From positions 130,803 to 194,802 of the forward strand of contig CALQZS010000001.1 of the NCBI GenBank assembly GCA_943349945.1: a DNA stretch of 64,000 nucleotides, given 5' to 3'. A program made the translations under genes and the position numbers. Below the pieces are notes generated by a model. That model was given only the letters and a program-made list of their open reading frames with translations, had not been told where the DNA came from and searched no databases. Shown one piece after another: positions 3,196 to 47,596 of the stretch. Each line of letters opens with the position of its first letter. Position 1 is the stretch's first letter. The DNA comes from Candidatus Nomurabacteria bacterium. Lineage in GTDB: Bacteria; Patescibacteriota; Minisyncoccia; Phycocordibacterales; SBAW01.

Positions 3196-3723
3196 TTAGC
3201 AGCCAGCAACTACGCTGCCGCCAGTGCCGCTACTGACATGTACTGAGCCAAAAGTTGCTGCAGTACCTCCGTAAGTAACGTTACCTGCCTCTAGCACTGT
3301 GCAGATTTTGTAGTTTTGGGTTGTTGCACCTGCTGCAGGCGCTGCACCTACCGCTGTGTCTGTACCTATAACGTACTGACATGCTGCTGATGCAACTGCG
3401 CTACTTGCCGCTGGTGCACATGCTGTACCTGCTGTACCTACTGTTGGGTCTCCATATGCAGAGAAGCTTACAGGACTTGGGCCAGTACAGGTGTTTGCTT
3501 TTGCACTTGCGCCTGTGCAGGTTGCCAAGGCAACTGCGGGGTCAGTGTCGGCAAGCTGTATTGCCTTTGCCATTTCTTTAAGTGACGAGACGCGTTCTGC
3601 ATCACGTGCCTTGCCGCGAGCACTATTAAGAGAAACCAGCACAATAGATGCCAAGATACCGATGATGGCGATAACCACCAAGAGTTCTATAAGGGTGAAA
3701 CCTTTCGTAAACGTTTTGCGCAT
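3196..3723 (-). CDS. type IV pilin (major pilin candidate, Ala/Gly/Thr-rich C-terminal domain with Cys pairs)
   Basis: [28 protein letters not shown].... Confidence 0.8.
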
Positions 3724-3828
3724 AGAAATCTTCTATTTATTAATAATCTGCCATTAATAGTGACTCGCAGATATGCCGTAAGTATATCCTACCCCGCTTT
3801 GCCGCCAGGCCGCTTGTGTGGATAAGCC

Positions 3829-3872
3829 CACCCGCGGGTTAAACCCGCAGGTGGAATGTGTGGTGTAATATA
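3829..3872. repeat. REP-like palindromic repeat, family A (left copy)
   Basis: cacccgcgggttaaacccgcaggtggaatgtgtggtgtaatata contains the palindrome gcgggtt-a-aacccgc. A near-identical copy lies at 4575-4618. Confidence 0.6.
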
Positions 3873-3875
3873 CTT

Positions 3876-4556
3876 ATGTCAAATCGGGCACCCATAGCCA
3901 CGGGCGAGTGGTACCATTGCTACACTCGCGGAGTGGACAAGCGTATCGTCTTTGAAACCCGATCTGACTATGAGCGTTTCTTGGCATACCTTTATATAGG
4001 AAACGGTACCAACCTGCTCCGTCTTTCAAACATACAAGACAAGCGTTTGGTGTCCGTACTCACCAATACACGTCTGCAGCGCGGAGAGCCCTTGGTCGAC
4101 ATAGGCGCATACACCCTTATGCCTAATCATGCGCATTTTATATTACGACAAACACACGACCAGGGCATCGCCACCTTTATGCAGCGAGTTTTTACTGGAT
4201 ATACACAATACTTCAACAACAAACACGAACGGACGGGAGCGCTCTTTTCAGGAACATACAAGTCGAAACACATACTGGACGACCGCTATCTAAAGCAAGT
4301 AACTGCCTATGTATTGCTAAACCCGGTGGAATTATTTGAACCCGCATGGAAAGAAGGAGTGGGCAACTTGAACCACATCGAAAAACAGGTTCGCACCTAT
4401 CCTTATTCTAGTCTCGTTGATTTTTATGGGTCACAGCGCCCAGAAAGCAGTATCACGACAAACACGCTGCACGCGTACTATGATCAGCGTCCTAGCCTTA
4501 CAGACATGCTTGCGGACGCGCAGGCATTTTATAGAGAACACGAGCCTAAAGCTTGA
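3876..4556 (+). CDS. REP-associated tyrosine transposase-like (RAYT, IS200/IS605-family Y1 HUH) protein
   Basis: HUH motif YTLMPNHAHFIL with a catalytic-Tyr region. It is flanked by family-A REPs. The start is probably MSNRAPIATGEWYH at 3876. Confidence 0.75.
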   Translation: MSNRAPIATGEWYHCYTRGVDKRIVFETRSDYERFLAYLYIGNGTNLLRLSNIQDKRLVSVLTNTRLQRGEPLVDIGAYTLMPNHAHFILRQTHDQGIATFMQRVFTGYTQYFNNKHERTGALFSGTYKSKHILDDRYLKQVTAYVLLNPVELFEPAWKEGVGNLNHIEKQVRTYPYSSLVDFYGSQRPESSITTNTLHAYYDQRPSLTDMLADAQAFYREHEPKA

Positions 4557-4574
4557 AACACCGCCCGCTCCCCC

Positions 4575-4618
4575 ACCTGCGGGTTAAACCAGCAGGTGAA
4601 ATGTGTGGTGTAATATAT
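4575..4618. repeat. REP-like palindromic repeat, family A (right copy)
   Basis: cacctgcgggttaaaccagcaggtgaaatgtgtggtgtaatata, a direct repeat of 3829-3872. Confidence 0.6.
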
Positions 4619-4655
4619 TTTGAGAAGTAAAAAGGGAGGGGTTGTTTGTGTTGTG

Positions 4656-5870
4656 CTAGATGCTGGTGGTGCTGCTGTAGATAGGGAGCAAGACTGCCGC
4701 CAACAAAAAGCCCACACCCACCGCAAGCGCCACAATAAGCACAGGTTCGATGAGCGACACCAAAGTGTCGACCGCTGCATTTACCTCGCGGTTATAGAAC
4801 TTGGCCATACGCTCCAAAATGTTGCCCAACTCGCCTGTTTCTTCACCGATCTGGAGCATCTGCACCATAATGGCTGGTATTTCGTCTGGATATTGCGCAA
4901 GCGTCTGCGACATAGGACTACCGGCCTTCACTCCTTCGAGCGCTTCGAGCAAAATGGTTTGGTAGACTGCGTTTTCTATAACTGACGAAGTGATTTCGAG
5001 TGAGCGTACTGCCGATATACCGGAAGACAACATCACATGCATGTTGTCTGCAAAGCGAGACAGGTAGAGTTTTTGGTAGAGTGTGCCCACGTACGGAATA
5101 GAGAGCTTTGCACGCGCCATACTAAGTCGTCCACGCGGCGTCTGGCTGTAGCGATACAAAAAGTATCCGCCGATAATAAGCGCCACGAACAAGAATATGC
5201 CATAGTCGGTCAAAAACGCACTAAAGCCAAGTATGACTTTGGTGTATACGGGCAACTCCTGCCCACTTTCCGACAAAATAGAACCTATTTTTGGAATAAC
5301 CACCGTAAGCATCAGCGTCATCACCGCAAAGAAAGTAAAGAGAATGAACGCCGGGTAGATGAGCGCATTGCGAGCCTTGGAAGTCAGCTCGTAGGAGCGG
5401 TCTATGTAGTCGGCCAAAAATTGGAAGGTCTGGTCGAGCTTGCCGGACTCCTCGCCTGCACGAACCATGTTGACATAAAAGTCAGAAAAAACTTTAGGGT
5501 GCTTTACCAGCGCTTTGGAGATGCTGTTACCCGCCTGCAAGTCGTCGCTTATTTCGGTAAGAACCGTGCGCAAGTAGGGCTTTTCTGCCTGCTCGGCCAA
5601 CAAACGGAAAATACGCAGTGCAGAAACTTGCGCCTCGAACAAGGTCGCCAACTGGCGAGAAAGGAGCACCACATCGCGGCCAGTTACGCCGCCAAAAAAT
5701 GGCAGCTGCACGGTCAAACCATGTAGTCCTTTTGGCGCATCGCTGGTGAGCGCCGTGATGGTAAATCCTTTGCGCTGCAGCGACTCAATAGCCGCGTCTT
5801 GTGTGGCAGCGTTTACTACACCGGCTTGTGCCTTTCCTGCTTGGTCGAGTGCTTCGTATTTAAATTCCAT
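4656..5870 (-). CDS. pilC: type IV pilus assembly inner-membrane platform protein (GspF/PilC family)
   Basis: 404 aa with two T2SSF-like domains and a TM topology typical of PilC. Confidence 0.9.
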   Translation of the reverse strand: MEFKYEALDQAGKAQAGVVNAATQDAAIESLQRKGFTITALTSDAPKGLHGLTVQLPFFGGVTGRDVVLLSRQLATLFEAQVSALRIFRLLAEQAEKPYLRTVLTEISDDLQAGNSISKALVKHPKVFSDFYVNMVRAGEESGKLDQTFQFLADYIDRSYELTSKARNALIYPAFILFTFFAVMTLMLTVVIPKIGSILSESGQELPVYTKVILGFSAFLTDYGIFLFVALIIGGYFLYRYSQTPRGRLSMARAKLSIPYVGTLYQKLYLSRFADNMHVMLSSGISAVRSLEITSSVIENAVYQTILLEALEGVKAGSPMSQTLAQYPDEIPAIMVQMLQIGEETGELGNILERMAKFYNREVNAAVDTLVSLIEPVLIVALAVGVGFLLAAVLLPIYSSTTSI

Positions 5871-5907
5871 AAATCTGTGCTAAGTGAGTGAAATAAACAT
5901 GCTTCGA

Positions 5908-6975
5908 TTATAACAGCCGCTCAAGGGTCTTTGGATTCCAACTAAGGTTGTATGCGCTCTCGACTGTTATCTCGCCTGCACGCACAAGTTCTGCAAGAGA
6001 GCGGTTCATGTCTATCATACCCTCTTCGGCACCGGTCTCTATCACCGTCTGGAGTTCGTGCGTGCGCTTTTCTCGGATAAGGTTGGCGACTGCGTTGTTG
6101 TTTATAAGCAGCTCGCACGCAGGCACCAGCCCGCCAGAAATGCGCGGCACCAAACGCTGCGAAAAGATACCTGCCAACGACCCCGCCAGCTGGATACGAA
6201 TTTGGTCTTGTTGCCCCGCGGGGAACGAGTCGATGATGCGGTCGATGGTTTGTGCTGCGTTGTTGGTGTGGAGTGTTGAAAACACCAAGTGCCCCGTCTC
6301 GGCGGCAGTTACGGCTGTGGCCATGGTCTCGGGCGTGCGCATCTCACCTATCATCAACACGTTTGCATCCTGACGAAACACCGAGCGCAGCGCCGAGTCA
6401 AAGTCGGCCGTGTCCACACGAACCTCGCGCTGGTCTATGAGTGACTTTTTATTTTCGAACAAGTATTCAATAGGGTCTTCTATGGTGACAATATGCTCGG
6501 TACGTTCGGTGTTTATCTTCTCGAGCAATGCAGCAAGTGTCGTAGTTTTACCCATACCCACCGGCCCCACCACCAAAAAGAACCCCTGTTTGCGTGACGC
6601 AAACGTCTCCAAAATTGGAGGCAACCCAAGCTCGCTGAGCGAGCGTATTACCTTGGGGATAAGACGCAGCGCCACGGCGACGTGCCCGCGCTCGACAAAC
6701 CCGTTGCCACGGAAGCGCGTTTTTTCTTGGTGCGAGTAGGAAAAGTCTATTTCTTGTGTCTCTAAAAAGCGTTTTTTGTGCTCGGGGCTCAACATCTCCG
6801 ATAACAGGCCGATAATTTCGTCGTTCGTTAAGACCGACTCAGACAAAATAGGTGTCAGCGCACCCGACACACGTATGATGGGTTGTGCACCCACAGACAA
6901 GTGCAAGTCCGAAGCACCTTGCGCGACCAACAAATCAACCAACTCTGCTACTTTCTTTTTAAAATCAGTTATCAT
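5908..6975 (-). CDS. pilT: twitching motility ATPase PilT
   Basis: 355 aa with Walker A GPVGMGKTTT in a PilT-like AAA+ secretion ATPase. Confidence 0.9.
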   Translation of the reverse strand: MITDFKKKVAELVDLLVAQGASDLHLSVGAQPIIRVSGALTPILSESVLTNDEIIGLLSEMLSPEHKKRFLETQEIDFSYSHQEKTRFRGNGFVERGHVAVALRLIPKVIRSLSELGLPPILETFASRKQGFFLVVGPVGMGKTTTLAALLEKINTERTEHIVTIEDPIEYLFENKKSLIDQREVRVDTADFDSALRSVFRQDANVLMIGEMRTPETMATAVTAAETGHLVFSTLHTNNAAQTIDRIIDSFPAGQQDQIRIQLAGSLAGIFSQRLVPRISGGLVPACELLINNNAVANLIREKRTHELQTVIETGAEEGMIDMNRSLAELVRAGEITVESAYNLSWNPKTLERLL

Positions 6976-8846
6976 ACTTGGACTTCTTTTACATTTTCAT
7001 CAGGGATATCTTCTTCTCTTAGTGCTTCTGGCTTGGCGACAGGTTGTTCCAGTGGCGGAGCTTCATCTGCCAAGTCGTACTCGCCGCCGAGTGTGTTCAC
7101 TTCTTCAAACGGAATAACCCCTTTGGCTGATTTTATAATAGCATCTTCTTTCATTGTAAACATGCCACTTTTGCGCACTGTTGCGAACATCTCTTCTTCG
7201 GGTTTGTTGGCAAGTATGGCACGCTCAAGTTCTGGATTCATCTCAAATGCCTCAAACACCGCAATACGGCCCTTGGTACCCGTTGGGCAGTCGGCTGTAG
7301 GGTTTAGGCGATACACTTCGTCTAGTGGAGGAATATTTTTTTCGTATGCAGGAGGTAAGTCGGCAAACTCTTTTTTAAACATCTCTTGCATACTGGCATC
7401 GACCTTCATCTTTTTGCCACCGCCCGGGCACAAGGTGCGCACCAAACGCTGCGCCATGCCCAAAATAAGCACCGGAGGTATAAGGTAGGGCTCGATACCC
7501 ATGTCGAGCAAGCGAGGCACAATACCCACAGCGTTGTTGGTGTGGATGGTAGACAACACAAGGTGGCCGGTGAGCGCGGCTTGCACAGCCAAGTCTGCTG
7601 TCTCACTGTCGCGGATCTCGCCGACCATGATGATGTTTGGGTCTTGGCGGAGTGTAGTGCGGAGCCCTGTGGCAAACGTGTAGCCAATTTCGGGCCGCAC
7701 CTGACTTTGCGACACGCCGGGTATGGTGTATTCCACCGGGTCTTCAAGCGACAGCACGTTCTGCCTTTCTCGGTCTATCTCGTTCAAAATCGCATAGAGT
7801 GTGGTGGATTTACCCGAACCGGTTGGCCCCGACACCAGCACGAGCCCGTAGGGTTTTTTAATTGCTGCGCGTATAAGCGCCAAGTCGCGGTCAGAAAACC
7901 CAAGACTGTCCAACCGCAGGTCCTTTGCGGCCGAACCCAAAATACGCATCACCACCTTTTCGCCATAGTACGTGGGGAATGTGGATACACGGAAGTCTAC
8001 TTTGTTGCCGCCCACCCGGGCAGAAAAGCGGCCGTCTTGCGGTTTGCGTTTTTCGTCGAGTCGCATGTTGGAAAGCACCTTAATACGTGCCACCACCGAG
8101 CTGTGTACCTTGGACGGCAAGGTGATGTTGACTATGAGCACACCGTCGATACGAAACCGCACCCGTGTTTGGTCGACCATAGGCTCAATGTGGATGTCGG
8201 ACGCGCGCTGCTCGGCAGCATGGCGCAGCACCGTAGCCACAATCTTGGTTACCGGTGCGTCTTCGGTAATAGCGGCAGCTTCGGTGTCGGTTATCTGGTC
8301 TTCTTCGACCGATATGTTGCGTTTGTCATTCTTTCCCAGCTTCTTAGCGTCTACTCCTATTTCTGTCTCTAGCTCGCTCAGTGCTTTGCCCACTTCGCCC
8401 GAGAGACCTTTGTACTGTGTGAGCAGTTTTTCGAAGTCGGTTTCGTTTATCAAAAAAACTTTGTACGGCATGCCCACCTTGGCCGAAATAAAAGACAAGG
8501 CGTCCCGCGCCTCCAAGTTGTCTGGGTCGGTGACCCCAACCTCAAGCACGCCGTCGGCGAGCCCCAAAGGGGCGAGCCTGTAGTGCCGCGCCGACTCCTC
8601 GGGTATGTAGCCCAAAATATCAAACGGCACCGACCTGTCGCCCAACTCGCGCGTCGGCACACCAAAATAGTCTCCCTTGGCTTTAAGCAGCGCCGCCGGG
8701 GTAATACCCGCAGTTTCAAGCGCCAACTCTGTCTTAGCCGGAGAGTCCCCTGCCGCGGTTTTTGACTTACTTAAAGTGGCGCGCAGCTCGGTAGCCCGAG
8801 CTTTGTCCACGACGCCGCCTTCTTCCAAAACAGTTACCAGATCCAT
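6972..8846 (-). CDS. pilB: type IV pilus assembly ATPase PilB (GspE family)
   Basis: 624 aa with Walker A GPTGSGKSTTL and an N-terminal GspE_N-like region. It overlaps pilT by 4 nt. Confidence 0.9.
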   Translation of the reverse strand: MDLVTVLEEGGVVDKARATELRATLSKSKTAAGDSPAKTELALETAGITPAALLKAKGDYFGVPTRELGDRSVPFDILGYIPEESARHYRLAPLGLADGVLEVGVTDPDNLEARDALSFISAKVGMPYKVFLINETDFEKLLTQYKGLSGEVGKALSELETEIGVDAKKLGKNDKRNISVEEDQITDTEAAAITEDAPVTKIVATVLRHAAEQRASDIHIEPMVDQTRVRFRIDGVLIVNITLPSKVHSSVVARIKVLSNMRLDEKRKPQDGRFSARVGGNKVDFRVSTFPTYYGEKVVMRILGSAAKDLRLDSLGFSDRDLALIRAAIKKPYGLVLVSGPTGSGKSTTLYAILNEIDRERQNVLSLEDPVEYTIPGVSQSQVRPEIGYTFATGLRTTLRQDPNIIMVGEIRDSETADLAVQAALTGHLVLSTIHTNNAVGIVPRLLDMGIEPYLIPPVLILGMAQRLVRTLCPGGGKKMKVDASMQEMFKKEFADLPPAYEKNIPPLDEVYRLNPTADCPTGTKGRIAVFEAFEMNPELERAILANKPEEEMFATVRKSGMFTMKEDAIIKSAKGVIPFEEVNTLGGEYDLADEAPPLEQPVAKPEALREEDIPDENVKEVQV

Positions 8847-10528: not shown

Positions 10529-11629
10529 TTACCCTATTTCTTGCAAACGACGGAGTGCCAAGCCCACTGCCACACAAAACTCTGGTCCTGCTTCTTTTAA
10601 AATCTCTTCCAAAAATGCGGGCGCCTCTGTTTTACCAAAAGGGTCTGCAAGACGGATTTCTGTTTGTATTTTGCCTTGTGCAAAAGCCTGCATACCTTTA
10701 AGCGTGGCGCCACCACCAGTCAAAATGAGCGCACTCAAAGACTGATTCATCCGCGCCTCGTATGCCGCCACCGTGCGCGAAATATCGGACAACAAAGGAG
10801 ACAGAGAAAGTTCGAGTGATTTTTGTAGCTCTGCCCAGCCGCCCGGGTCTGTAGCAGACCCACCACCAGTAAGCCCGAATTTGCGCTTGCGTTCTTCTGC
10901 TTCGGCAACAGAAATATTGAGCGCACGCGAAGCCGCAAGTGTAAGGTCTTGGCTGCCGTGGTTGATGATGTGACTCTCGTGTATAAGCCCGCGCTCGACG
11001 ACATAAAACTTGGTAGTGGCCGCACCCATGTCGACCACAGCCACCGGTGCTATGCCATGGTCGAGCGCGGCACGCACTGCACTAAAGACCTCTATCTCAA
11101 AAAATCCAGTAACCAACCCGGCGTCGCTAGATATAGTACGGAACTTGGCCAGTGTGTCGTTGTGTATAGCAACAAGCAAAACTTCTATTTTGTCGGATGG
11201 CTCGGCGCTTTTACCTCCGCCACCCACCACAAACCAGTCGAGCATTACCTCGTTAATAGGCACGGGGATGTATTTGCGCGCCTCAATAGGCACCACTTGC
11301 GCCAGCTGTTTTTCTACGGACGCAGGTAGGCGCAAAATTGAGATCAAGCTCGACGAGTATGGTATAGCGATGCCCGCGTCTGTGGTGGTTACGTTTGCCT
11401 CGCGTATGACGTCTTTAAGCGCCTCGGCGATTTTCTCAGCAGGAAGGGCAGTGGCGCGGCCAATTTCTATATCGGCATACGGCCCAAGCGCTATGGCGCC
11501 ATACGTCTCGAGTATCACCTTACCCCTATCGCGCCGCAGTTGTACAACCTTAATGGACGAGGTGCCAATGTCGACACCAAGTACACTTTTTTGCGGCTTA
11601 TTAAAGAATGTTGAAAAGGAAAATGCCAT
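10529..11629 (-). CDS. pilM: type IV pilus assembly protein PilM (actin-like ATPase fold)
   Basis: MAFSFSTFFNKPQKSVLGVDIGTSSIKVVQL..., a typical PilM N-terminus. Confidence 0.85.
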   Translation of the reverse strand: MAFSFSTFFNKPQKSVLGVDIGTSSIKVVQLRRDRGKVILETYGAIALGPYADIEIGRATALPAEKIAEALKDVIREANVTTTDAGIAIPYSSSLISILRLPASVEKQLAQVVPIEARKYIPVPINEVMLDWFVVGGGGKSAEPSDKIEVLLVAIHNDTLAKFRTISSDAGLVTGFFEIEVFSAVRAALDHGIAPVAVVDMGAATTKFYVVERGLIHESHIINHGSQDLTLAASRALNISVAEAEERKRKFGLTGGGSATDPGGWAELQKSLELSLSPLLSDISRTVAAYEARMNQSLSALILTGGGATLKGMQAFAQGKIQTEIRLADPFGKTEAPAFLEEILKEAGPEFCVAVGLALRRLQEIG

Positions 11630-11659
11630 ACTAGCTTACGTTTGTTACCATTATATACT

Positions 11660-12271
11660 ATGTGGGAATCTTTTTTATCTTCCCTACTCGACTACCTAGT
11701 ACTGCCGCGCAAAACAGACCAGATCGTGCGCACACTAACACTCGACGAGCTCTACTCGTTAGTGTTGCACTCTGAAGACCAGGGGCTGTTGCCCTACCAA
11801 GACGAGCGCGTGCGCGCCTTGGTGTGGGAGCTTAAATACTATGCAAATAAACACGCCGCAGCGCTTGCCGCCCTCGTCTTGCATGAAACCCTCATAACAA
11901 TAGCCTCAGAGGAGTTGGGCAAGCCACTACTTATCCCCGTCCCCATGCACAAGGCCCGCAGGCGCGCACGAGGCCATAACCAAACAGAGGTATTGTGTGA
12001 AGCGCTGCTCGCCCATGTGGGCGAGTTTTTTGTATACGCACCAGATGTGTTGGTGCGCCATATGCATACCGAGCAACAGCAGGGGCTGCAAAAAGATAGG
12101 CGGCTCAAAAATGTTGCGGGCTCTATGCACAGCAAGCCGCAGGTCCAAGGCCGCACGTGCGTGGTCGTAGACGACGTCACAACCACCGGTGCCACGTTTG
12201 CCGAGGCCACGCGCGCACTCAAAGAGGCCGGGGCACAGCGCGTGATATGCGTTGCTTTGGCAAAATCGTGA
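11660..12271 (+). CDS. comFC: ComF family protein (phosphoribosyltransferase-type competence protein ComFC)
   Basis: C-terminal PRTase motif VVVDDVTTTGATFAEA. Start uncertain: TTG at 11642 or ATG at 11660. Confidence 0.7.
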   Translation: MWESFLSSLLDYLVLPRKTDQIVRTLTLDELYSLVLHSEDQGLLPYQDERVRALVWELKYYANKHAAALAALVLHETLITIASEELGKPLLIPVPMHKARRRARGHNQTEVLCEALLAHVGEFFVYAPDVLVRHMHTEQQQGLQKDRRLKNVAGSMHSKPQVQGRTCVVVDDVTTTGATFAEATRALKEAGAQRVICVALAKS

Positions 12272-15651: not shown

Positions 15652-16302
15652 TTAATTAATAATTTCCACCAACACTTCATTGCGATACATCCACGGTGGA
15701 GTCCATGGTGCGCTGTATCCAGCGTATGCAGTGCTTCCCTTTGTCGCCACTCCATCACGGGCAAGTGCCGAAGCTAATTTTTCTTGCATGTCTTTTACCC
15801 GCGTATCCGAGCGATACCCCGAGAATTGCAGTACTGCATATTTCTTGGTAGGGATCATCACGATTTTCACTCTCGGATCATTTGGTGTCGGTAATGTTTC
15901 AAGGGTGTACGAGCGGGGCATACCAAAAGATATTATTTGCGAGTCACCATCAGTCGTCGCTACTACCGGTGCAGTCATAGCAATATTTTCTGATGTTTTT
16001 TCGCCTCCTACTTTTTGCGCGATGACTGGAACGGTCATCGCTATACTTTCTTTTTTTGTATTTCCGCCAAAGATATACCCAGCAACAATTCTAAAACCAT
16101 TATTCATAGATTCTCCATAAGAACCCTTTACCGTAGTCTGCGCTACGATATGTGCCGGATATTCTCGTATTTCATATCCATCTTTTATCTCAATGACAGT
16201 ATAGTCAGCTTGCTCAACACGCGAACCAAAAAATCCTGAGATAGACCAAAGCACCACAATAACAAGCAAAGCGATAAGTATAGTGCTCATATTTTTATTC
16301 AT
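15652..16302 (-). CDS. SOUL heme-binding protein family protein
   Basis: N-terminal TM helix plus the SOUL/HBP fold signature (YEIREYPAHIVAQT...AGYIFGGN). Confidence 0.7.
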   Translation of the reverse strand: MNKNMSTILIALLVIVVLWSISGFFGSRVEQADYTVIEIKDGYEIREYPAHIVAQTTVKGSYGESMNNGFRIVAGYIFGGNTKKESIAMTVPVIAQKVGGEKTSENIAMTAPVVATTDGDSQIISFGMPRSYTLETLPTPNDPRVKIVMIPTKKYAVLQFSGYRSDTRVKDMQEKLASALARDGVATKGSTAYAGYSAPWTPPWMYRNEVLVEIIN

Positions 16303-16345
16303 ATAGCTTTAGTATATAATAGTATATACTAAACTATAATAATAT
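16297..16345. promoter_or_regulatory. divergent promoter region with TAGTATATA direct/inverted repeats (candidate operator)
   Basis: ttagtatataatagtatatactaaactataataatattagtttagtatat lies between the SOUL (-) and fasciclin (+) starts. It contains a 12-bp inverted repeat atatactaaact/agtttagtatat. Confidence 0.35.
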
Positions 16346-16393
16346 TAGTTTAGTATATGCATTAACAATATTTAATCAATTTAAAATAAATAT

Positions 16394-16795
16394 ATGCAAA
16401 ATATCGTAGAAACAGCTGTCGCAGCAGGATCATTTAAAACACTGGTCACTGCAGTGCAAGCGGCAGGATTAGTAGACACTCTATCTGGTGCAGGTCCCTT
16501 CACTGTATTTGCTCCAACTGATGAGGCTTTCGCCAAAATTCCAAAAGAGACTCTCGACGCAGTCCTTGCGGATAAAGCAAAGCTAACATCTATACTTACG
16601 TACCATGTGGTGGCAGGAAAAGTAATGGCTTCTGATGTAATGGGCCTGACTTCTGCAAAGACAGTACAAGGTGATGAAGTTAAAATAGAAACTGCAGATG
16701 GAGTTATGGTAAACGACGCCAAAGTAGTACAAACAGACATAGAATGCACAAACGGAGTAATCCATGTCATCGATTCAGTCTTGATGCCAAAATAA
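16394..16795 (+). CDS. fasciclin (FAS1) domain protein
   Basis: Typical FAS1 H1/H2 motifs ([10 protein letters not shown]...[11 protein letters not shown]). Confidence 0.8.
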
Positions 16796-16814
16796 ATACA
16801 TCCGAAATAAAAAT

Positions 16815-16844
16815 AAAAAACTCTAACTTTTGTTAGAGTTTTTT
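16815..16844. terminator. bidirectional rho-independent terminator
   Basis: aaaaaactctaacttttgttagagtttttt, with A-run and T-run on both sides, between convergent genes. Confidence 0.6.
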
Positions 16845-16855
16845 ATTTTTATTGA

Positions 16856-17245
16856 TTAGGCGTCTATTTTTGCCGCAAGAATAAAATCATTTTGAGAGAG
16901 TCCGTTAATTGCATGGGTGGACAGCGTGAGCTCTACAAATTTGTAGTTTTTCAGATATATGTCCGGATGATGCCCCTCTGATTCAGCCAAAACGCCAACC
17001 TTATTTACAAAAACAAGAGCTTCATTGAAGTCCTTAAAACTATATCGCTTGGCGATACTTTTAGCATCAAGCGAAATATCCCAGCCGGGAATTTGCTTGC
17101 ATAATATATCTGCCTCTATCTTTGAAAAAGGAATGACACCACCATCGCATGCCATGCATTTTTGTTGAGTCAGTGGCGAGTTAGTTTTAGGAGTAGGGGC
17201 CTGACTCTGTATAGTTGTATGTTCCATATGCTTGTAGTATAGCAA
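16856..17245 (-). CDS. phhB: 4a-hydroxytetrahydrobiopterin dehydratase (PCD/DCoH)
   Basis: EGHHPDI...ELTLSTHA motif. Confidence 0.8.
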   Translation of the reverse strand: MLYYKHMEHTTIQSQAPTPKTNSPLTQQKCMACDGGVIPFSKIEADILCKQIPGWDISLDAKSIAKRYSFKDFNEALVFVNKVGVLAESEGHHPDIYLKNYKFVELTLSTHAINGLSQNDFILAAKIDA

Positions 17246-17268
17246 AATTAAGAATGGCTACAAATTTT

Positions 17269-18939
17269 TTATTTCGTATCAATATGATTCCACGCAAAAC
17301 CCTTGTCTCCATACACTTTTTTACCTGGGTTTAAAATAGCAAGCGGGTCAAAAATATCTTTTGTCTTTTCAAAGAGACGTACGATCTCAGGGGTAAACAT
17401 CTGCGAAAGGTACGAGGTACGTAAAAGTCCGTCATTATGTTCTCCAGACATAGAACCTCCATACTGAAATACGAGAGTATAGACTTCATCCATGAGTGTA
17501 TGGAGAGTCTCAACTATTCCTTCTTTATGAATGTCAATAAGCGGAATAATATGAAAGTTTGCATCTCCCATATGTCCGGCCACAGTATAAATAAGATCAT
17601 ATTTCGAAAAAATAATTTCAAGTTTGGGAAGAAACTCCGGGAGATCTTTTGTGTGTACGACAATATCATCAATTGTGGGTGCCGTTCGATACCCTCGCAA
17701 CTTCTGGCGAAGCAGGTTGAAGCTTTCGCGCCTGAATGTCCAATACTTTTTTGCTTCTTGTTCCGAGTGCGTCAATGTAATAGGAAATCCGAATACCTTC
17801 ATCTCGTTATATGCTGACTGTACCTGCTCTGCAACTTCTTCTTCAGTATCCCCTGCAAATTCTGCCATGAGAATTATCTTTGGAACTCCGCCAGTGATTG
17901 CCATCCAAAACTCAGGCAAAAATTGGAACCCGAGCGTCAACATAGTACCCCCCATGCTTTTTGCAATTGAACCAAAGAATTTAATCGCTATTTTAAACGT
18001 ATGATCATCATAAGATTCGATGGTTTCAGGTGTATGTTTTAAAAGTCTTGGAATTATTTCTCCTAGTTGCGTTGTGGCTGGCAAAAACATAACGAGCATT
18101 CTGGAATGTTTTTTGGGGACAATTCCACTCAATGTCGCTTCAGTCACACAGGCAAGGGTTCCCTGACTGCCCACAACGAGCTTTGATAGGTCAAATACTC
18201 CTGATTCTTTATCGTAGACATTCCAAAGATAGTACCCTGAAGAATTTTTTGTTACTGTCGGTTTTGCTTGTTGCAGTACATCATAGTTGTCCTTTACAAG
18301 GGCAAATATCTCTCGATGAATGCGCCCGCTTTCAGTTTGTTCTTCGCATTTTGCGATAAGTTTCTCTGCATGAAGTGGTTCTAGAACATCTTCTTCTCCA
18401 TTTGCAAATACAACACGAAGCGAGCGAACATACTTTTCCGTCTTTCCATAGGTAAGTGTCTTTTCACCTCCTGAGTTATTAGAGACAATACCTCCAATCG
18501 CAGCCAAATCACGAGACGCCGGATAGCTTGGCAAAAGCCAGCCGTGCGCAAGAGTCTTTTTCTCAAAATCACTATAGTATACCCCCGGCTCTGTTATGGC
18601 TTCTGTGTCGGTGACAGAAAATACATGATTCATGTATCTCATTGTGTCTACGACGATGGATTCCGAAAGTGGGCCACCGGTCATACAGGTACCGGCGGCA
18701 CGCATGGTGAGGGATAACGGTACACCCTGATCTATATCTTTAGTTTTTTTTGCATGCACATAAGCAACAAGTTTTGCAATGTCTTCTTTACTTTTTGGGT
18801 AGACAACAATGCGGGGTTTTACATAAAAAAGGCTTGTGTCTCGCGCAGCTTTTTCTCGATCACTGTCTAAGATAGAAATATCTCCTTTGATTATTGTACG
18901 CAAATCACCAGCGACATCCGTATAAAAAATTTCATTCAT
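17269..18939 (-). CDS. FAD-linked oxidase (D-lactate dehydrogenase/glycolate oxidase GlcD-like)
   Basis: 556 aa with an FAD-binding PCMH domain and an FAD-oxidase C-terminal domain. Confidence 0.8.
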   Translation of the reverse strand: MNEIFYTDVAGDLRTIIKGDISILDSDREKAARDTSLFYVKPRIVVYPKSKEDIAKLVAYVHAKKTKDIDQGVPLSLTMRAAGTCMTGGPLSESIVVDTMRYMNHVFSVTDTEAITEPGVYYSDFEKKTLAHGWLLPSYPASRDLAAIGGIVSNNSGGEKTLTYGKTEKYVRSLRVVFANGEEDVLEPLHAEKLIAKCEEQTESGRIHREIFALVKDNYDVLQQAKPTVTKNSSGYYLWNVYDKESGVFDLSKLVVGSQGTLACVTEATLSGIVPKKHSRMLVMFLPATTQLGEIIPRLLKHTPETIESYDDHTFKIAIKFFGSIAKSMGGTMLTLGFQFLPEFWMAITGGVPKIILMAEFAGDTEEEVAEQVQSAYNEMKVFGFPITLTHSEQEAKKYWTFRRESFNLLRQKLRGYRTAPTIDDIVVHTKDLPEFLPKLEIIFSKYDLIYTVAGHMGDANFHIIPLIDIHKEGIVETLHTLMDEVYTLVFQYGGSMSGEHNDGLLRTSYLSQMFTPEIVRLFEKTKDIFDPLAILNPGKKVYGDKGFAWNHIDTK

Positions 18940-19154
18940 ACATTTATTATAACATTATCGGACTCATTTTACTTAGCGTTTGCTTCGAGTTTTTCTTCGC
19001 TGTATATACCAGTACACATAGAGAGAAAGTAGAAGGATTATATTCGGAATAAATATGATTGGTTGACCCCAGGATATTCCATTGATATGGAAGTCTGAAA
19101 TCGGCCACAAAAAAGGCGTTGGGAAAAAGGCAAAATCGTGTGTAGGTATATCAA

Positions 19155-19445
19155 CTAAAATATGAAGTGGCCACGCGAGCGTAAGCTTGGCAAAATGCTT
19201 TTTGCCAAGAATAACGCATAAACGACCAAGCTATGAGTAATACCATAGACGGTGAAGACGTACGGCGGAATCGTTTCTAAGCTTGGCCGACCCATTGCGC
19301 CACCAGAAACTAGATTTATTATAAAAAGAGGCGCGAACGCCAAGAGGTCTGGCCCTATACCAAAGAGAAATGCAGTCACATAATCCCGCCTGCGCATGCG
19401 ACCAAATGCAACACCTCCATATAATCCGTGAGAGATAATGTCCAT
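19155..19445 (-). pseudogene. possible truncated/frameshifted membrane-bound metal-dependent hydrolase (DUF457-like) remnant
   Basis: 96-aa ORF MDIISHGLYGG.... Additional hydrophobic reading frame continues after the stop in 18960-19150, with an overlapping alternative frame at 19231-19449. Confidence 0.3.
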
Positions 19446-19473
19446 ACATTTATTATACTATTTGTATGTGAAA

Positions 19474-20934
19474 TTATTTTTTAGACAGATACTCCTTTGC
19501 AATTTTTAAATAATTTTCTTTTTTCTTTTTTTCCATCTTATCAAAAAGTCTCGGCATCATCGATAGTCGATGATTACTTGTGAAAAAGTCACGGTGACTA
19601 GCTATGAAATTCCAATACAGTGCAGTCCACTTCTCTTCCCAATCGCCACCAGTATAATCTGACATTTTTTTAATGTAATTGCTACCCGAGATATATGGTT
19701 TGGTAGCAAAAATACCACCATCAGCGAACTGACTCATCCCATATACATTTGGTACCATTACCCAATCATACGCATCAACATACATTGCCATAAACCATTG
19801 ATACACATAATCGGGATTAACCTGAGAAAGCAACATAAAGTTACCGATAACCATCAATCGTTCGATATGATGATTGTATCCATAGTGCAGAGCTTTCTTG
19901 ATAGCGCTGTCGACCGGAGCAATACCAGTATCTCCAGTCCAAAATCCTATTGGCAAGTTGCGGGAATGTTTCCAAAAATTCTTCGTGCGCATGACGGCAC
20001 CATCACACTCATAGGAAGCGCGCATAAACTCACGCCACCCAATGATCTGTCGTACAAAACCTTCGAGTGAATTTATAGGTATAGCGTGAGTATCTGCATA
20101 TACTATTGCACTATCGATTACCTGCCTTGGGTCGAGCAATCCAATATTTATGAGAGCTGACAATGTAGAATGAAAAAGCCGTACGCTTTTCGTAGAAAGC
20201 GCGTCCTCATACACACCAAAATCTGCAAAGCGGTCTTCTAAAAATACCTGCAAAAATTTTTTGGCATCCTTGTGTGTATATGGTAGCCAGCAGGCTATCT
20301 CTCCATATTTTTCAGCTTGTATTGTATCGAGCCACTTCTTCATTTTTGATACATCAAAATCATTTTCAAAAACAGTATCCTTGGGGAGAGTTGTATCTCG
20401 AGCAAGTTTTTTTCGATTGTCTGCATCAAAGCTCCACGCTCCCCATCTGGGCTTTCCATGTCCGTCCATCAAGATACCCAAGTCCACTCGAATTTTCTTG
20501 TAGAACATCGCCATATTTTTCTTTGAGCTTTTGTATCTTGCTATTGATTCCTCCTTTGGCAAAATAAAAAGTGGTGACTCATACCAAACCCGCTTTATCT
20601 TGGAAGCTGTTATAGCCCGCTCCAAATAGAAGTCAGTAGTATCGACAATATGAAGTTCTTGTATCCCTTCTTTTTTTAAATAATCAAAAATATCTTTCGT
20701 CTTCGGATACTGTTCAATCGTCAGGCATTTTACTTTGTACCCCTCTTTTTTCAAAAGCTCTGCATATGCGCCCATACTTAATTTGTGCAAAATTAGCTTT
20801 TGATAATGAATGGGGTTGTGCGACAGAATCAAGGGCTCTTCAATCAAAAAAATAATCCGTGCTTTTTGTATAGCCGGTGATTTTATAAAAAGTTGATGAG
20901 GATAGACCAATGTTGCTTCTTTCATAGTATTCAT
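19474..20934 (-). CDS. cryptochrome/photolyase-related protein (COG3046-type)
   Basis: 486 aa with GWREF and NHHIERLMVIGNFMLL motifs, in an AT-rich gene. Confidence 0.8.
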   Translation of the reverse strand: MNTMKEATLVYPHQLFIKSPAIQKARIIFLIEEPLILSHNPIHYQKLILHKLSMGAYAELLKKEGYKVKCLTIEQYPKTKDIFDYLKKEGIQELHIVDTTDFYLERAITASKIKRVWYESPLFILPKEESIARYKSSKKNMAMFYKKIRVDLGILMDGHGKPRWGAWSFDADNRKKLARDTTLPKDTVFENDFDVSKMKKWLDTIQAEKYGEIACWLPYTHKDAKKFLQVFLEDRFADFGVYEDALSTKSVRLFHSTLSALINIGLLDPRQVIDSAIVYADTHAIPINSLEGFVRQIIGWREFMRASYECDGAVMRTKNFWKHSRNLPIGFWTGDTGIAPVDSAIKKALHYGYNHHIERLMVIGNFMLLSQVNPDYVYQWFMAMYVDAYDWVMVPNVYGMSQFADGGIFATKPYISGSNYIKKMSDYTGGDWEEKWTALYWNFIASHRDFFTSNHRLSMMPRLFDKMEKKKKENYLKIAKEYLSKK

Positions 20935-20937
20935 CTA

Positions 20938-21204
20938 TCAGGTTGATAGTATTAAAATCAAAATAGCGAAGTATACGATCAGATAAAAACGATAGAAATT
21001 AATCACCCGCAACTCTGCACTCTTCGTGCGCTGATGAAAGCCAAAAAGCACTTTGATCTCCTCCCAAAAAACGGGCTTTACATTAATCCACCAGCTATCA
21101 GTTTGATAGACCATCTTCCTAAATCGACTGCGAAACAATCCCAAAGGAAAACTCCAGATAAAAAACGCAACGATGGCAATCGTGTGTATGGTTATAGTAT
21201 CCAT
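20938..21204 (-). CDS. small membrane protein (translationally coupled to photolyase-related gene)
   Basis: 88 aa, two TM segments, with its stop 3 nt from the downstream start. Confidence 0.4.
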   Translation of the reverse strand: MDTITIHTIAIVAFFIWSFPLGLFRSRFRKMVYQTDSWWINVKPVFWEEIKVLFGFHQRTKSAELRVINFYRFYLIVYFAILILILST

Positions 21205-21325
21205 TTATGCCTCTTCAGTCCTTACTTCTATTATAAACTTTATTCTCTCAAGAGCTACCATTCCCTCCCCCTCCTTTTTGCGAACCTCGACCTTCAGGGG
21301 CAAAAGATACTTTGGCCATAAATTT

Positions 21326-22225
21326 TTACTCCACCGGACAGGTGTTTTTGCCCATCGCGGCGTAGAACCCACACCAGCTAAATATTGCTTCAAAGAATGC
21401 AAGGCCGGAGAAGAAGATGAGGATGGGGCTCCAGGTGGTGGTGATGGCCCATAGGAGCAATGCAATGCCAATGGCGAGGCGGACGAGTCGGTCGGACTTG
21501 CCGATATTTTTAGCAACTCCACGCACAGAGTTTTTAGCAACCTTTTTCAAAATCGCGCGGTAGACGAAGCCCACGATGAACGCAAGAATATATATAATGA
21601 CAATCAGTCCCCACCCAAAGGGCGAGAGGATAAAGCCGATTGGCGATTCGTTAAAAAAATCCTTTTTAATCTGCGGGATGAGCGTGAGTGCGTTTAAGCC
21701 TTCTTTGCCGTCAAACTTCTCTATCTCACCGATGGCGAGCGAGTACTTGCTGTCGTTGTTGGGGCTTGTCACACGGATCTCGTAGATGCCTACATCAGCA
21801 CGCGCTTTATACTCTGGTCCTTGCCAGTAGGTGTCGTAGCCAAATGGTTCAAAAAACTGTTTCCATGCAAATGTCGCGCCATCGAGCACGGCGATTTGCT
21901 TGCCGTCTTTTAGTACCACAGCGGAGACATCTTTCTTTTGCCCTGCAATGTCTGGCACCAAGACTCCGACATACAGATTAAACGCTTGCTTCGCATCTAT
22001 AGTATATACATCCGGCTCGCCCATGAGCTTGCCATAATATGCTTTGGAAACTTCGGGGTCAGTAACTGATGTAAGTCTATCCTCTGTAATTCGAGGCTGA
22101 TGTGCGGAAGCCAAGCTCGGAGTCAACGTAAATATAGAGACAAACAACGCAAGCAGCGTGAGTGATAGTAGTTTGGAATTTATGTTATATCCGAAAACGT
22201 TCAAGATGCACCTAGTATACAGCAC
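21326..22225 (-). CDS. secreted protein with C-terminal DUF2892-like transmembrane domain
   Basis: Signal peptide plus a C-terminal RLVRLAIG...SWCGFYAAMGKNTCP motif. Confidence 0.5.
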   Translation of the reverse strand: MLYTRCILNVFGYNINSKLLSLTLLALFVSIFTLTPSLASAHQPRITEDRLTSVTDPEVSKAYYGKLMGEPDVYTIDAKQAFNLYVGVLVPDIAGQKKDVSAVVLKDGKQIAVLDGATFAWKQFFEPFGYDTYWQGPEYKARADVGIYEIRVTSPNNDSKYSLAIGEIEKFDGKEGLNALTLIPQIKKDFFNESPIGFILSPFGWGLIVIIYILAFIVGFVYRAILKKVAKNSVRGVAKNIGKSDRLVRLAIGIALLLWAITTTWSPILIFFSGLAFFEAIFSWCGFYAAMGKNTCPVE

Positions 22226-22230
22226 CTAGT

Positions 22231-22599
22231 CTAGAAGTAAGGGATGAGTAAACTAAGTCCCTTCCCCATCAGAAAGCTGTATATCAGCAACCCAATGAAC
22301 GGTAGAGGCACCAGCCATAAAAACCATCTTGGATGGTCAGGTTTTTTTGAAAAAACCATGTACCAATTCAACGCAAATATAAGAGGTGTACAAATTGACA
22401 AGAGAGCACTTGTACCAAAACCGAGCAGTCCAAACACTTCCCCACTACTCCATACGAAAGAGTCGTCCTGCACAATAAACAAAAAGGCTACGCTCGACCA
22501 AACAACAGCTATTAGAAACACCTTTACTAAAAGCGCTTCGTAAATTCCAATAGCAGCCAAAACTATTTTTACAGGCGTGTTGATGGTGAATCTATGCAT
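22231..22599 (-). CDS. hypothetical membrane protein
   Basis: Start moved to ATG 22597-22599 (MHRFTINTPVKIV...), because the track ORF's N-terminus overlaps a tRNA on the same strand. Confidence 0.45.
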   Translation of the reverse strand: MHRFTINTPVKIVLAAIGIYEALLVKVFLIAVVWSSVAFLFIVQDDSFVWSSGEVFGLLGFGTSALLSICTPLIFALNWYMVFSKKPDHPRWFLWLVPLPFIGLLIYSFLMGKGLSLLIPYF

Positions 22600-22627
22600 G
22601 TAGGTAATTATATACCCATAACCGTTG

Positions 22628-22714
22628 CGGAGAGAGCGAGATTCGAACTCGCGGGCCCAATTAAGGGCCGACAGTTTAGTAAACTGTTGATTTAAACCAC
22701 TCATCCATCTCTCC
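22628..22714 (-). tRNA. type II (long variable arm) tRNA, Ser-like, anticodon apparently ACU
   Basis: Acceptor GGAGAGA/TCTCTCC, T-arm GCGAG-TTCGAAT-CTCGC, variable arm GGCCC-TTAATT-GGGCC, and anticodon stem ACAGT/ACTGT with loop TTACTAA. Confidence 0.7.
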
Positions 22715-22926
22715 ATATATTCGCACTGCTCAAATGGAGCTGCTCGGCGCAGATCGATGGAATCGTGGTCGGCACATGGTGCCGGCTTGAGAAGAAGCAG
22801 TTCTTCTCTTCGCCCATCTCATCCATCTCTCCTTGCCCTTGAGGATACTACAGTATATAGAGGAGCTCAATTAAAGCCTTTTTGAGCGTGTAAAGTAGCC
22901 CCTATTATGGTACTGTGGCGTGTATT

Positions 22927-23011
22927 GGAGACGTGTCAGAGTGGTCGAATGTGCCTCCTTGCTAAGGAGGTAGGGCGCAAGCCCTCGTGGGTTCGAATCC
23001 CACCGTCTCCG
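22927..23011 (+). tRNA. tRNA-Ser (GCU)
   Basis: Acceptor GGAGACG/CGTCTCC, anticodon loop TTGCTAA between CCTCC/GGAGG, long variable arm, and T-arm GTGGG-TTCGAAT-CCCAC. Confidence 0.85.
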
Positions 23012-23049
23012 CAAAGCTAAATTTTGATATATTCTCCTATCTAAATTTT

Positions 23050-23230
23050 GCTTATGTGTGAACGGGAGAGGGATTCGAAGGACGGAAGAAAAGCTCTGGG
23101 AGAGCTTTTCTGAGTCGGGGTCGCGAGATTTTTCAGCAGAAAAATACTTGTGACCGAATCCCACTGTCCACAAATACTACGCGGCGTAGAATTGAGTCGA
23201 AGCCGAATCGTTTTAATCGTCTCCGCTTAG
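23050..23230. repeat. degenerate tRNA-end fragments (possible att-site scars)
   Basis: gggagagggattcgaagg resembles the end of the minus-strand tRNA. gaccgaatcccactgtccaca and atcgtctccgc resemble the 3' end of tRNA-Ser(GCU), TTCGAATCCCACCGTCTCCGCA. Confidence 0.35.
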
Positions 23231-23298
23231 TTTTTTGTAGTGTTCTACTGTAGAGCATTTTATGTGGTATAAACAAGCCATATCATTAATTTTTTAAT

Positions 23299-23931
23299 AT
23301 GTCTCGACAAACGATATTAATATTAGTCCTTATTGTTTTGGTGGTTGGCGTAAGCGGGTATTGGTATTTTAGTCACCAAAGCAAGGTTACCGACGTACCT
23401 ACAGAGGTGGTTGCAACGACAAATACTACCCATGTAGAAGAAGTAAAGGTGGAAAATAATCGAAAAAGTGCCGTAACGTCTAATGGTTTGGAATTTGACC
23501 CGGCTAAGGTACAGCCCGGGGAAAAATTCGGTGCGTTTACAGTTATTGCTTCGAGCGCTTATACGATTGGCGATGAACACTCTTACTCAGTAAGTTTCAA
23601 AGGACCTGTAAATATCCAGGGTGTATTAAACAATTTTGAGCCTAGTATGTGTGGTGCAGTACTGGAGATTTCTACATCAACTTCCGAAACCTTGCCTAGA
23701 GTGAGCGGTGAAAAGGTGGGGAGCATGAATGTATACCTTGACCTAGATGGTTTGCCAGAGGCAGAGCGTGTTACTTATACGAGCGCCGGTTTTACAACCC
23801 CTTCCGGGCAACTACTCCAAGAGGGTGATGTGTTAGAAGTAACTGTTGATACGTTTTTGGCTTCGCACCAAGGGAAAGATTGTAGCGGCAAGAGGATACA
23901 GGTCACCTCATTTAAGAAGCTTTCTATCTAA
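23299..23931 (+). CDS. hypothetical secreted/membrane-anchored protein
   Basis: 210 aa with an N-terminal TM/signal anchor. Confidence 0.5.
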   Translation: MSRQTILILVLIVLVVGVSGYWYFSHQSKVTDVPTEVVATTNTTHVEEVKVENNRKSAVTSNGLEFDPAKVQPGEKFGAFTVIASSAYTIGDEHSYSVSFKGPVNIQGVLNNFEPSMCGAVLEISTSTSETLPRVSGEKVGSMNVYLDLDGLPEAERVTYTSAGFTTPSGQLLQEGDVLEVTVDTFLASHQGKDCSGKRIQVTSFKKLSI

Positions 23932-24022
23932 CTGCGCAGCAAAATAGAAAACTTCGCCTCAGTACATATTTGTGACCGAGTCTCACTCTCTCTCCGCCAT
24001 ACATATACAACTTTTTTAAGAG

Positions 24023-36378: not shown

Positions 36379-36531
36379 CAAGAAGAAAGGGATTTCCCCT
36401 TACAGGGGCAGTACAGGTCTCGTATCGCACTTCATAAACTTTATGCGATATACTCGACCTTTTCAATCCCTGCACATACAGTGCATAGGCACTGTATTCG
36501 CGCCAATACTCGCTATGCTCGTTCTATTGTG

Positions 36532-36603
36532 TGGGCGCGGCAGGGATTGAACCTGCGACCAGTCGTGTATAAGACGACCGCTCTACCACTGAGCTACGCG
36601 CCC
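36532..36603 (-). tRNA. tRNA-Ile (UAU)
   Basis: Acceptor GGGCGCG/CGCGCCC, D-arm GCTCAGTGGTAGAGC, anticodon stem GTCGT/ACGAC with loop CTTATAC, and T-arm GCAGG-TTCAATC-CCTGC. Confidence 0.75.
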
Positions 36604-37599: not shown

Positions 37600-37619
37600 A
37601 CTGTGGCCTTGTGCCACAA

Positions 37620-37648
37620 CCCGCCTCACAATGAGGCGGGTATTTTTT
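37620..37648 (+). terminator. rho-independent terminator
   Basis: cccgcctcacaatgaggcggg followed by TATTTTTT. Confidence 0.6.
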
Positions 37649-37709
37649 ATCGCACAATATTTTTTGCTATGGTAGGCTTTTGGGCAGACGAACAACCCAG
37701 GAGCAGAAC

Positions 37710-38714: not shown

Positions 38715-38727
38715 GGCGGGTAATTTT
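38698..38727 (+). terminator. rho-independent terminator (near-identical to the one at 37620)
   Basis: cccgcctcaacatgaggcggg followed by TAATTTTTT. The stop codon lies inside the hairpin. Confidence 0.6.
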
Positions 38728-46620: not shown

Positions 46621-46645
46621 AACCCACAAGTCTGACTTGTGGGTT
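46621..46645. repeat. REP-like palindrome, family B (copy 1)
   Basis: aacccacaagtctgacttgtgggtt, a 10-bp perfect stem (cccacaagtc/gacttgtggg). Confidence 0.65.
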
Positions 46646-47539: not shown

Positions 47540-47596
47540 TCCCTAGTAACTCGACGACTGAACACAAAGTTACTCGTCGACACCAAACCAGTGTCC

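Follow-up and report, generated by a model that had tools for sequence, protein, structure and literature searches.

What kind of element interrupts the type IV pilus locus of a Candidatus Nomurabacteria bacterium? The 64-kb stretch of DNA analyzed here (the window) contains, between the major pilin gene and pilC, a small gene that lies on the strand opposite to both neighbors, encodes a Y1 HUH protein, and is bracketed by two near-identical repeats with a palindrome in each. A sequence-only reading of the same DNA had described this as the classic arrangement of a REP-associated tyrosine transposase (RAYT) with its repetitive extragenic palindromes (REPs), and had considered it unusual for a genome resembling the candidate phyla radiation (CPR). 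RAYT-type genes are common and their function is unknown; work on them has centered on Proteobacteria with thousands of REPs. We favor another reading, to which we give a probability slightly below 0.6: the locus would be a resident, low-copy, RAYT/IS200-like module, bounded by hairpins and inserted as a unit, whose enzyme recognizes the flanking hairpins on single-stranded DNA and could, on rare occasions, cut and rejoin at them.

The gene runs on the forward strand from an ATG at 3876 to a TGA at 4556, and was characterized with Pfam, NCBIfam, sequence alignment, and structure modeling. Its product has 226 residues, one fewer than the sequence-only reading had counted, and the HUH motif noted there is present: His85 and His87, encoded at 4128-4136, lie in the context LMPNHAHFIL (PNHAH), and the predicted catalytic Tyr145 lies within YVLLNP (4308-4325). 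Across 30 aligned homologs, E11-W-Y-H-C15, H85, H87, Y145, and N149 do not vary. The profile searches that had been proposed as a check gave a divided answer. Pfam PF01797 (Y1_Tnp) just passes, with 25.8 bits for a gathering threshold of 23, and matches 21 of the 30 homologs at E ≤ 1e-3, whereas the NCBIfam RAYT profile NF047646 (REP_Tyr_transpos) reaches 38.3 bits for a cut-off of 80; all 30 family members tested give weak matches below that cut-off (best E 1e-10). Searching the PDB by sequence, with this protein as the sole query, returned nothing relevant, and a profile search returned only a marginal match to ISDra2. We therefore turn to the fold: an AlphaFold (AF2) model built with the 30-homolog alignment (mean predicted local distance difference test score, pLDDT, 90.8) was compared with the PDB using Foldseek, which placed 4ER8_A first (E 9.1e-6, probability 1.00), followed by ISDra2 and IS608 TnpA. 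The 4ER8 structure is that of Escherichia coli TnpA-REP bound to a REP hairpin. The protein also carries a helical C-terminal extension of roughly 75 residues, and the Pfam search found no helix-turn-helix (HTH) or DnaA-like domain in it. In the classification of Quentin et al. (2018; PMC6006769), the motif Y-x3-NP marks class 2 (RAYT-like) TnpAY1 proteins, whereas IS200 has Y-x3-Q; because the tyrosine motif here is Y-x3-NP, the protein falls into class 2 rather than with IS200. Judged by its motif and by the best match of its predicted fold, the protein is a Y1 HUH enzyme nearer to RAYT/TnpA-REP than to IS200.

The repeats proved to be real but longer than the 44 bp previously given. A repeat search identified a 49-nt direct repeat, consisting of a hairpin and a promoter tail, at 3827-3875 and 4572-4620 (both on the forward strand), and both the search and direct reading give 45 of 49 identical positions (92%). 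The earlier 44-mer has exactly two matches in the 64 kb (chance expectation 0.00), at 3829-3872 and 4574-4617, the second copy lying one base off its previous placement. No further copy of the 44-mer, of its hairpin half, or of its tail half occurs elsewhere in the window with up to three mismatches; within these 64 kb the repeats are thus unique to this site, which speaks against calling them REPs. The short palindrome described for each copy is present as well, in a longer form: each repeat opens with an imperfect 13+13 palindrome with one mismatch, CCACCYGCGGGTT-A-AACCMGCAGGTG. The upstream palindrome, CCACCCGCGGGTT-A-AACCCGCAGGTGG (3828-3854), is a candidate Y1 recognition hairpin, and its outer foot is the pilin-side end of the insert. 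The downstream one, CCACCTGCGGGTT-A-AACCAGCAGGTG (4573-4598), begins 17 nt past the stop codon, unlike its equivalent in most homologs, which overlaps the stop codon. Both copies are in direct orientation. Folded as single-stranded DNA, the window palindromes reach −9.3 to −14.1 kcal/mol (z −3.1 to −6.0) and beat all or nearly all shuffled sequences; the values for the upstream hairpin are −11.7 (forward strand) and −14.1 (reverse strand). The direct repeat itself is not a target-site duplication, because its 22-nt tail, in the upstream copy, falls inside the unit, and the pilus site shows no convincing duplication beyond the hairpins. An integron attC site or a Xer/dif-type site was briefly considered and rejected: the central region measures 1-5 nt and there is no recombinase nearby.

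The tail of the repeat has a probable function of its own. An extended −10-like element, TG-G-TGTAAT (3861-3869, forward strand), ends 6 nt before the ATG; a simple −35/−10 scan did not flag it, and we recognized it by homology of position across 64 loci. Between the upstream hairpin and the start codon, TANNNT occurs in 57/64 loci, compared with 15/64 in an equally long downstream control, and TGNTANNNT in 30/64 compared with 2/64. The spacing from hexamer to start is exactly 6 nt in 32 of the 57 loci, and none of the 64 has a motif resembling a Shine–Dalgarno sequence. Because of this fixed spacing and the absence of a Shine–Dalgarno motif, transcription from the extended −10 most likely yields a leaderless mRNA; in the window the mRNA is probably leaderless, with a predicted start at A3876. 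Since the extended −10 lies in the 3′ 22 nt of the repeat, the repeat tail is the gene's own predicted promoter, and the repeat is more than a REP. The downstream copy carries a duplicate hexamer, TGTAAT at 4609-4614 (forward strand), preceded by TG at 4606-4607, which points antisense into the 3′ end of pilC and has no start codon at +1. It is conserved in L001 and L100, of the clade at 90% identity (L numbers denote loci compared with the window). Duplication of the promoter past the downstream hairpin is unusual in the family, with something similar only in L075, and the copy facing pilC is a candidate antisense regulator. The geometry of these parts also suits a purely regulatory account, in which a domesticated host gene, engaged in no DNA transaction, would use the upstream hairpin as an operator over the −35 region (for autoregulation or insulation) and the downstream hairpin as a 3′ stabilizer or terminator: across the family the upstream hairpin keeps a fixed place immediately before the extended −10, and the downstream one coincides with the stop codon. 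Against the terminator role, however, no T-run follows the hairpins, and a simple sigma-70/terminator scan found no terminator at the repeats. An Rfam search over the window returned tRNAs and the tmRNA only, with none at the hairpins.

Genes of this kind are no rarity among CPR genomes. We found more than 1,390 homolog clusters of about 226 residues, nearly all of them on one or two contigs, and a metagenome scan gave at least 576 loci. The names on the few labeled homologs are Patescibacteria and Kaiserbacteria, and Adlerbacteria and Paceibacterota were also met, which supports the CPR origin that had been suspected for the window; automatic pipelines already label some family members RayT. 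Plasmids and phages contain almost no members of the family. In the library searched, no paper describing RAYT or HUH hairpin elements in CPR was found, and we are apparently dealing with a large, undescribed, CPR-wide family related to RAYT and IS200 transposases.

We surveyed 89 gene copies, from the window and 88 further loci that are not fully independent of one another, with 719 kb of sequence in total. A cognate palindrome pair accompanies about 70 of the 89 copies, with one hairpin 10-45 nt upstream of the start and the other positioned at the stop codon or overlapping it; the loop of the latter frequently contains the TAA. The stems vary between loci through compensatory changes: among 123 distinct hairpins, the positions at offsets 3-7 from the center are 98%-100% Watson–Crick paired and most of them show three to four pair types, around a core CAAGG(Y)-N1-5-(R)CCTTG. 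Where two paralogs occur together, as in L048, L053, L085, and the window, each has a separate hairpin of its own. Outside the stem, the 123 centered hairpins show no conserved foot of the GT[AG]G type, and the window copies likewise lack one. We also observed that the 3-nt loop flips (AAG/CTT) independently at each end among the close relatives L060, L068, and L075; such flips are small loop inversions inside the palindromes, and concern about half of all loci.

Was the gene inserted together with its hairpins? The flanks allow a direct answer. Open reading frames and Pfam confirm the placement within the pilus locus, on the opposite strand, between the major pilin gene (3196-3723, reverse strand; Pfam N_methyl) and pilC (4656-5870, reverse strand; Pfam T2SSF), and Pfam identifies pilT, pilB, a second pilin, and a prepilin peptidase as the remainder of the locus. 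The PilC protein is 100% identical to a protein (P0121) found in 23 contigs, and all ten of the places listed for these contigs carry the gene at the same junction, as does the clade at 90% identity (L001 and L100). The comparison with relatives lacking the insert, which the sequence-only reading had proposed, gave this result: in L102-L105, whose PilC is 82% and 80% identical, the order is pilB-pilT-pilC-pilin-pilD with no Y1 gene, and the pilC stop is followed by 0-9 nt and then by CTTATCC(A/C)CA and the pilin upstream region. Because relatives this close have an empty pilC|pilin junction, we consider the element a genuine insertion in the pilus operon. Homology to the empty-site relatives resumes 1 nt outside the foot of the upstream hairpin, at GTGTGGATAAG (3816-3826, forward strand). 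On the pilC side, the insert ends somewhere from 4620 to 4655, within the 35 nt that separate the downstream repeat from the pilC stop (4621-4655); this stretch is absent from the empty-site relatives, and is poorly conserved and indel-rich with respect to L001. With its ends mapped to the hairpin foot and to 4620-4655, the insert measures ∼0.83 kb and includes both hairpins. The pilin upstream region (3724-3826, reverse strand) is kept from the uninterrupted locus, as shown by alignment to L102 and L105; since the pilin retains the same upstream region as in the empty-site relatives, the insert is probably neutral for piliation at this locus. We considered a functional link to type IV pili and discarded it: only the closest clade (the window and L001-L008) has the pilus context, and other family members reside in the str operon, beside tuf, or in unrelated contexts.

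Position varies among relatives. Homologs 60%-62% identical sit antisense at pilC|pilT (L004, L008) or at fusA|rpsG (L007). In L007, the 61% identical homolog (5821-6556) lies antisense between fusA (EF-G) and rpsG (S7), in the normally uninterrupted str operon, and the family member in L024 lies beside tuf. Counting neighbors of at least 150 residues, both are antisense to the gene in 27 loci and sense in eight, in a survey whose loci are not fully independent. Direct target duplications of 17-94 nt lie outside both hairpins in seven loci, among them L022, L031, L036, L039, L053, and L085; the longest, in L031 (9858-9951 and 10699-10792), spans 94 nt, is 95% identical, and derives from the 3′ end of rnc (RNase III). 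No common target motif was found for the insertions, and where a junction occupied in one genome stands empty in another, it has no hairpin. Insertion of the IS200/IS605 type is not known to make target duplications, in contrast to what these loci show.

These observations bear on one alternative, an active IS200-type element with subterminal hairpins that moves by peel-and-paste transposition. Hairpins at both ends of a unit of ∼0.75-0.83 kb with a Y1 gene as its only gene, a variable position among relatives, and an empty-site boundary at the hairpin foot are all as such an element would have them. Yet its protein should carry Y-x3-Q and have ∼150 residues rather than 226 (PMC6006769, Table 1); the 64 kb contain no near-identical copies, the sole paralog there being 30% identical; all strains listed and the 90% clade have the element at the same site; the long target duplications elsewhere are unlike IS200/IS605; and plasmids and phages, as noted, almost lack the family. 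We regard an active IS200-type element as very improbable.

One difference from a REP system lies in how far the hairpins have spread. In the survey, the density of extra cognate hairpins is 1.9 per 10 kb in the first kilobase from the gene and falls to 0.07-0.4 per 10 kb at 1-10 kb; beyond 5 kb there is one in 236 kb, and beyond 10 kb none in 98 kb. Spread is thus local only. Up to six to seven copies occur in 6-18 kb in L030 and L085, L056 has a tandem array of four, and in L004 extra hairpins bracket an adjacent PCC-domain gene. We further observed a cognate hairpin in frame within the Y1 gene itself, at codons 47-59, in nine to ten of 65 homologs (the carriers including L039, L045, L053, L055, L056, L079, L080, and L085) and in none of the shuffled controls; such hairpins recall the REP insertions within subclass 2.4 tnpA-REP genes (PMC6006769). 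For the window, the hairpin count covers 64 kb, and a scan of genome contigs with ACCNGCGGGTTWAACCNGCAGGT, in a collection without the source genome, gave one chance match, in a Firmicute. Measured against published criteria for REPs (PMC6006769), and within the reach of these data, the arrangement is a REPtron-like cluster that lacks dispersed REPs.

Under the classical REP/RAYT explanation, the gene would be a domesticated RAYT whose REPs are dispersed genome-wide in intergenic regions, the two seen here being those of its REPtron. The protein is indeed RAYT-like in fold and motifs, some relatives have the REP-like extra hairpins just described (L030, L085, L056, and the in-frame cases), and the paralogs are low-copy and divergent with a hairpin each, as in class 2 TnpAY1 (PMC6006769). 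Dispersal is nevertheless missing: there are two copies in 64 kb, and across the family the hairpins keep near the gene. The GT[AG]G foot is likewise absent, and with 38 bits for a cut-off of 80 the protein shares with the 30 tested family members a position below the NCBIfam RAYT threshold. Moreover, both hairpins arrived with the gene, and the target duplications lie outside both, whereas REPtrons reportedly do not move as units (PMC6006769). The classic arrangement proposed at first was therefore not borne out, and we hold it to be improbable.

Evolutionary rates were compared as well. Compared with L001 and L100, the Y1 gene shows a nonsynonymous divergence (dN) of 0.045 and a synonymous divergence (dS) of 0.41-0.43 (dN/dS ∼0.11), whereas pilC, pilT, and pilB (4656-8846) show dN of 0.06-0.085 and dS of 1.4-2.1. 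Synonymous divergence is therefore 3.5-5 times lower in the Y1 gene than in its flanks at similar dN, and nucleotide identity peaks within the gene (0.85-0.95 versus 0.75-0.85 in the flanks). The low dS reflects either exchange of the module between lineages after their split or constraint on synonymous sites. Elsewhere in the window, a 295-nt tract (11392-11686) is 100% identical to L001 with sharp edges amid ∼80% identity; it takes in the 5′ end of pilM, a divergent intergenic region, and the beginning of the gene that follows. Probably a trace of recent recombination, it shows that exchange between these lineages does occur.

Strong purifying selection, together with fixation in the species and a single copy, is also what the purely regulatory account would predict. 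That account leaves unexplained why the same sequence stands at both ends and co-evolves with the protein, why copies surround neighboring genes and occur in frame within the gene, and why the catalytic HUH and tyrosine residues are invariant, and we consider it unlikely, if less so than the REP/RAYT explanation. A bolder proposal, tentative at best and in our view somewhat doubtful, is that the family is a CPR-wide class of undescribed Y1-HUH mobile elements, hairpin-bounded and with a leaderless promoter built in, which insert as units between the genes of conserved operons (antisense to both neighbors about three times as often as sense), integrate with 17-94-nt duplications that preserve the 3′ end of the gene hit, and move between related lineages. 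Integration would then differ from peel-and-paste, because long target duplications of variable length are left behind, and movement from lineage to lineage, if true, would explain the lower dS of the module.

We return to the resident, hairpin-bounded module as the reading that we prefer. Its layout would be a hairpin, an extended −10 promoter, a leaderless 226-residue reading frame, and a second hairpin. This unit would have entered whole, between pilC and the pilin gene, in an ancestor of the species group, and would now reside there as a fixed single copy that purifying selection maintains. We expect the protein to act as a RAYT-like nuclease and ligase of single-stranded DNA, with the metal coordinated by His85 and His87 and the 5′-phosphotyrosyl link formed through Tyr145. 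The two flanking palindromes would be its cognate recognition hairpins: on single-stranded DNA they would extrude, and the enzyme would bind them and carry out cutting and rejoining close to the hairpin feet. The segment between and including the hairpins could then, rarely, be excised or inserted, and single hairpins could now and then be copied into nearby sites. Catalysis, action on single strands, the positions of cleavage, and activity at the present day are predictions.

Several points weigh against this scheme. A co-varying palindrome is equally expected of a site bound by a dimeric protein on double-stranded DNA. In about half of the loci the loops at the two ends share one orientation, and in the remainder they are inverted; with such a mixture, no single active strand can be named. 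The alignment to the empty sites shows no target duplication at the pilus site; we saw neither a second near-identical copy nor an excised circle nor a polymorphic empty allele; and for the source genome the hairpin copy number is that of the 64-kb window.

The window holds a second family member. It is a 232-residue Y1 paralog (47623-48321, reverse strand), 30% identical to the first, with 38 bits for Pfam Y1_Tnp and 37.7 bits for REP_Tyr_transpos, and is co-oriented with its neighbors; these two are the only Y1 genes in the 64 kb. Its own perfect palindrome, ACCCACAAGTC-W-GACTTGTGGGT, flanks it at 48348-48370 and 47597-47621, and a third copy at 46621-46645 means that a UDP-glucose-dehydrogenase-like gene (46676-47539) is bracketed as well. 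Past its downstream hairpin, CACTGGTTTGGTGTCGACGAGTAA (∼47570-47595) repeats the 3′ end of ndk in shortened form, and the source of this duplicate, CACTGGTTTGGT...ATCGACGAGTAG (48378-48435), lies directly upstream of the element; from the sequence, this looks like a decayed target duplication. An orientation set by the replication strand is unsupported: GC skew is negative throughout the window, as for one replichore, yet the first paralog is on the forward strand and the second on the reverse.

Other features of the window stand apart from the Y1 genes. A near-identical palindrome pair, ACCCGCCTCA-NNN-TGAGGCGGGT, each followed by a T-run and terminator-like, at 37619-37641 and 38699-38721, brackets a dihydroorotate-dehydrogenase-like gene (37680-38714), with no Y1 gene between. 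The region 16000-24000, with a GC content of 0.40-0.43 versus ∼0.52 elsewhere and two tRNA-Ser genes at 22.6-23.0 kb, may be an island. Finally, a tRNA-Ile gene with the anticodon TAT (36531-36603) would decode AUA without the usual lysidine-modified CAU tRNA, which is probably uncommon in bacteria.

In the tiny genomes of CPR bacteria, the family reduces a RAYT-like system to few parts: a single gene, its pair of cognate hairpins, and a built-in leaderless promoter, with next to no proliferation of hairpins. It supplies substrates that can be tested, namely the two hairpins, each of their strands, and the flanks. It also indicates that CPR operons as conserved as those for pili and the str genes tolerate such inserts, and, should the long duplications reflect the chemistry of integration, they would point to a new mode of insertion for Y1 HUH enzymes.

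Among known systems, the RAYT/TnpA-REP REPtron (E. coli YafM, 4ER8; class 2 TnpAY1, PMC6006769) is one of the closest. It shares with the module the Y1 HUH fold and Y-x3-NP, a gene bracketed by palindromes, divergent low-copy paralogs each with a cognate palindrome, vertical inheritance, and purifying selection; subclass 2.4 shares with some relatives the in-frame hairpins in the gene. The module differs in its protein (38 bits for a cut-off of 80, 226 residues, the helical C-terminal extension of ∼75 residues), in its hairpins, which lack the 5′ GT[AG]G foot and stay within a few kilobases of the gene instead of being dispersed, and in forming, with gene and both hairpins, one inserted unit that sometimes has 17-94-nt duplications and has its promoter and leaderless start built in. 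Insertion sequences of the IS200 type (IS200/IS605, class 1.1; IS608 and ISDra2 TnpA) resemble it in another way, having one Y1 gene between similar subterminal hairpins in less than 1 kb, inserted as a unit between genes. The module departs from them by Y-x3-NP, a longer protein, the lack of multiple identical copies and of a tnpB partner, a relative orientation of the hairpins that is not fixed, and the long target duplications of several loci. The third comparison, made by description, is with TnpAY1 subclass 2.1 (TIRYT), whose proteins have ∼238 residues with NH[YF]H, FQ, Y[IV]HLNP, and a C-terminal HTH, and which has no REPs (PMC6006769). Similar length, the N-H-x-H context, the C-terminal extension, and Phe in place of the usual Trp after HUH (with FQ in the second paralog of the window) are common to both. 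TIRYT elements, however, are reported to have terminal inverted repeats and no flanking REP-like hairpins (PMC6006769), whereas cognate hairpins are the rule in the module's family, and Pfam detects no HTH in the module's protein. The family occupies an intermediate position, with the insertion sequence on one side and the domesticated REPtron on the other.

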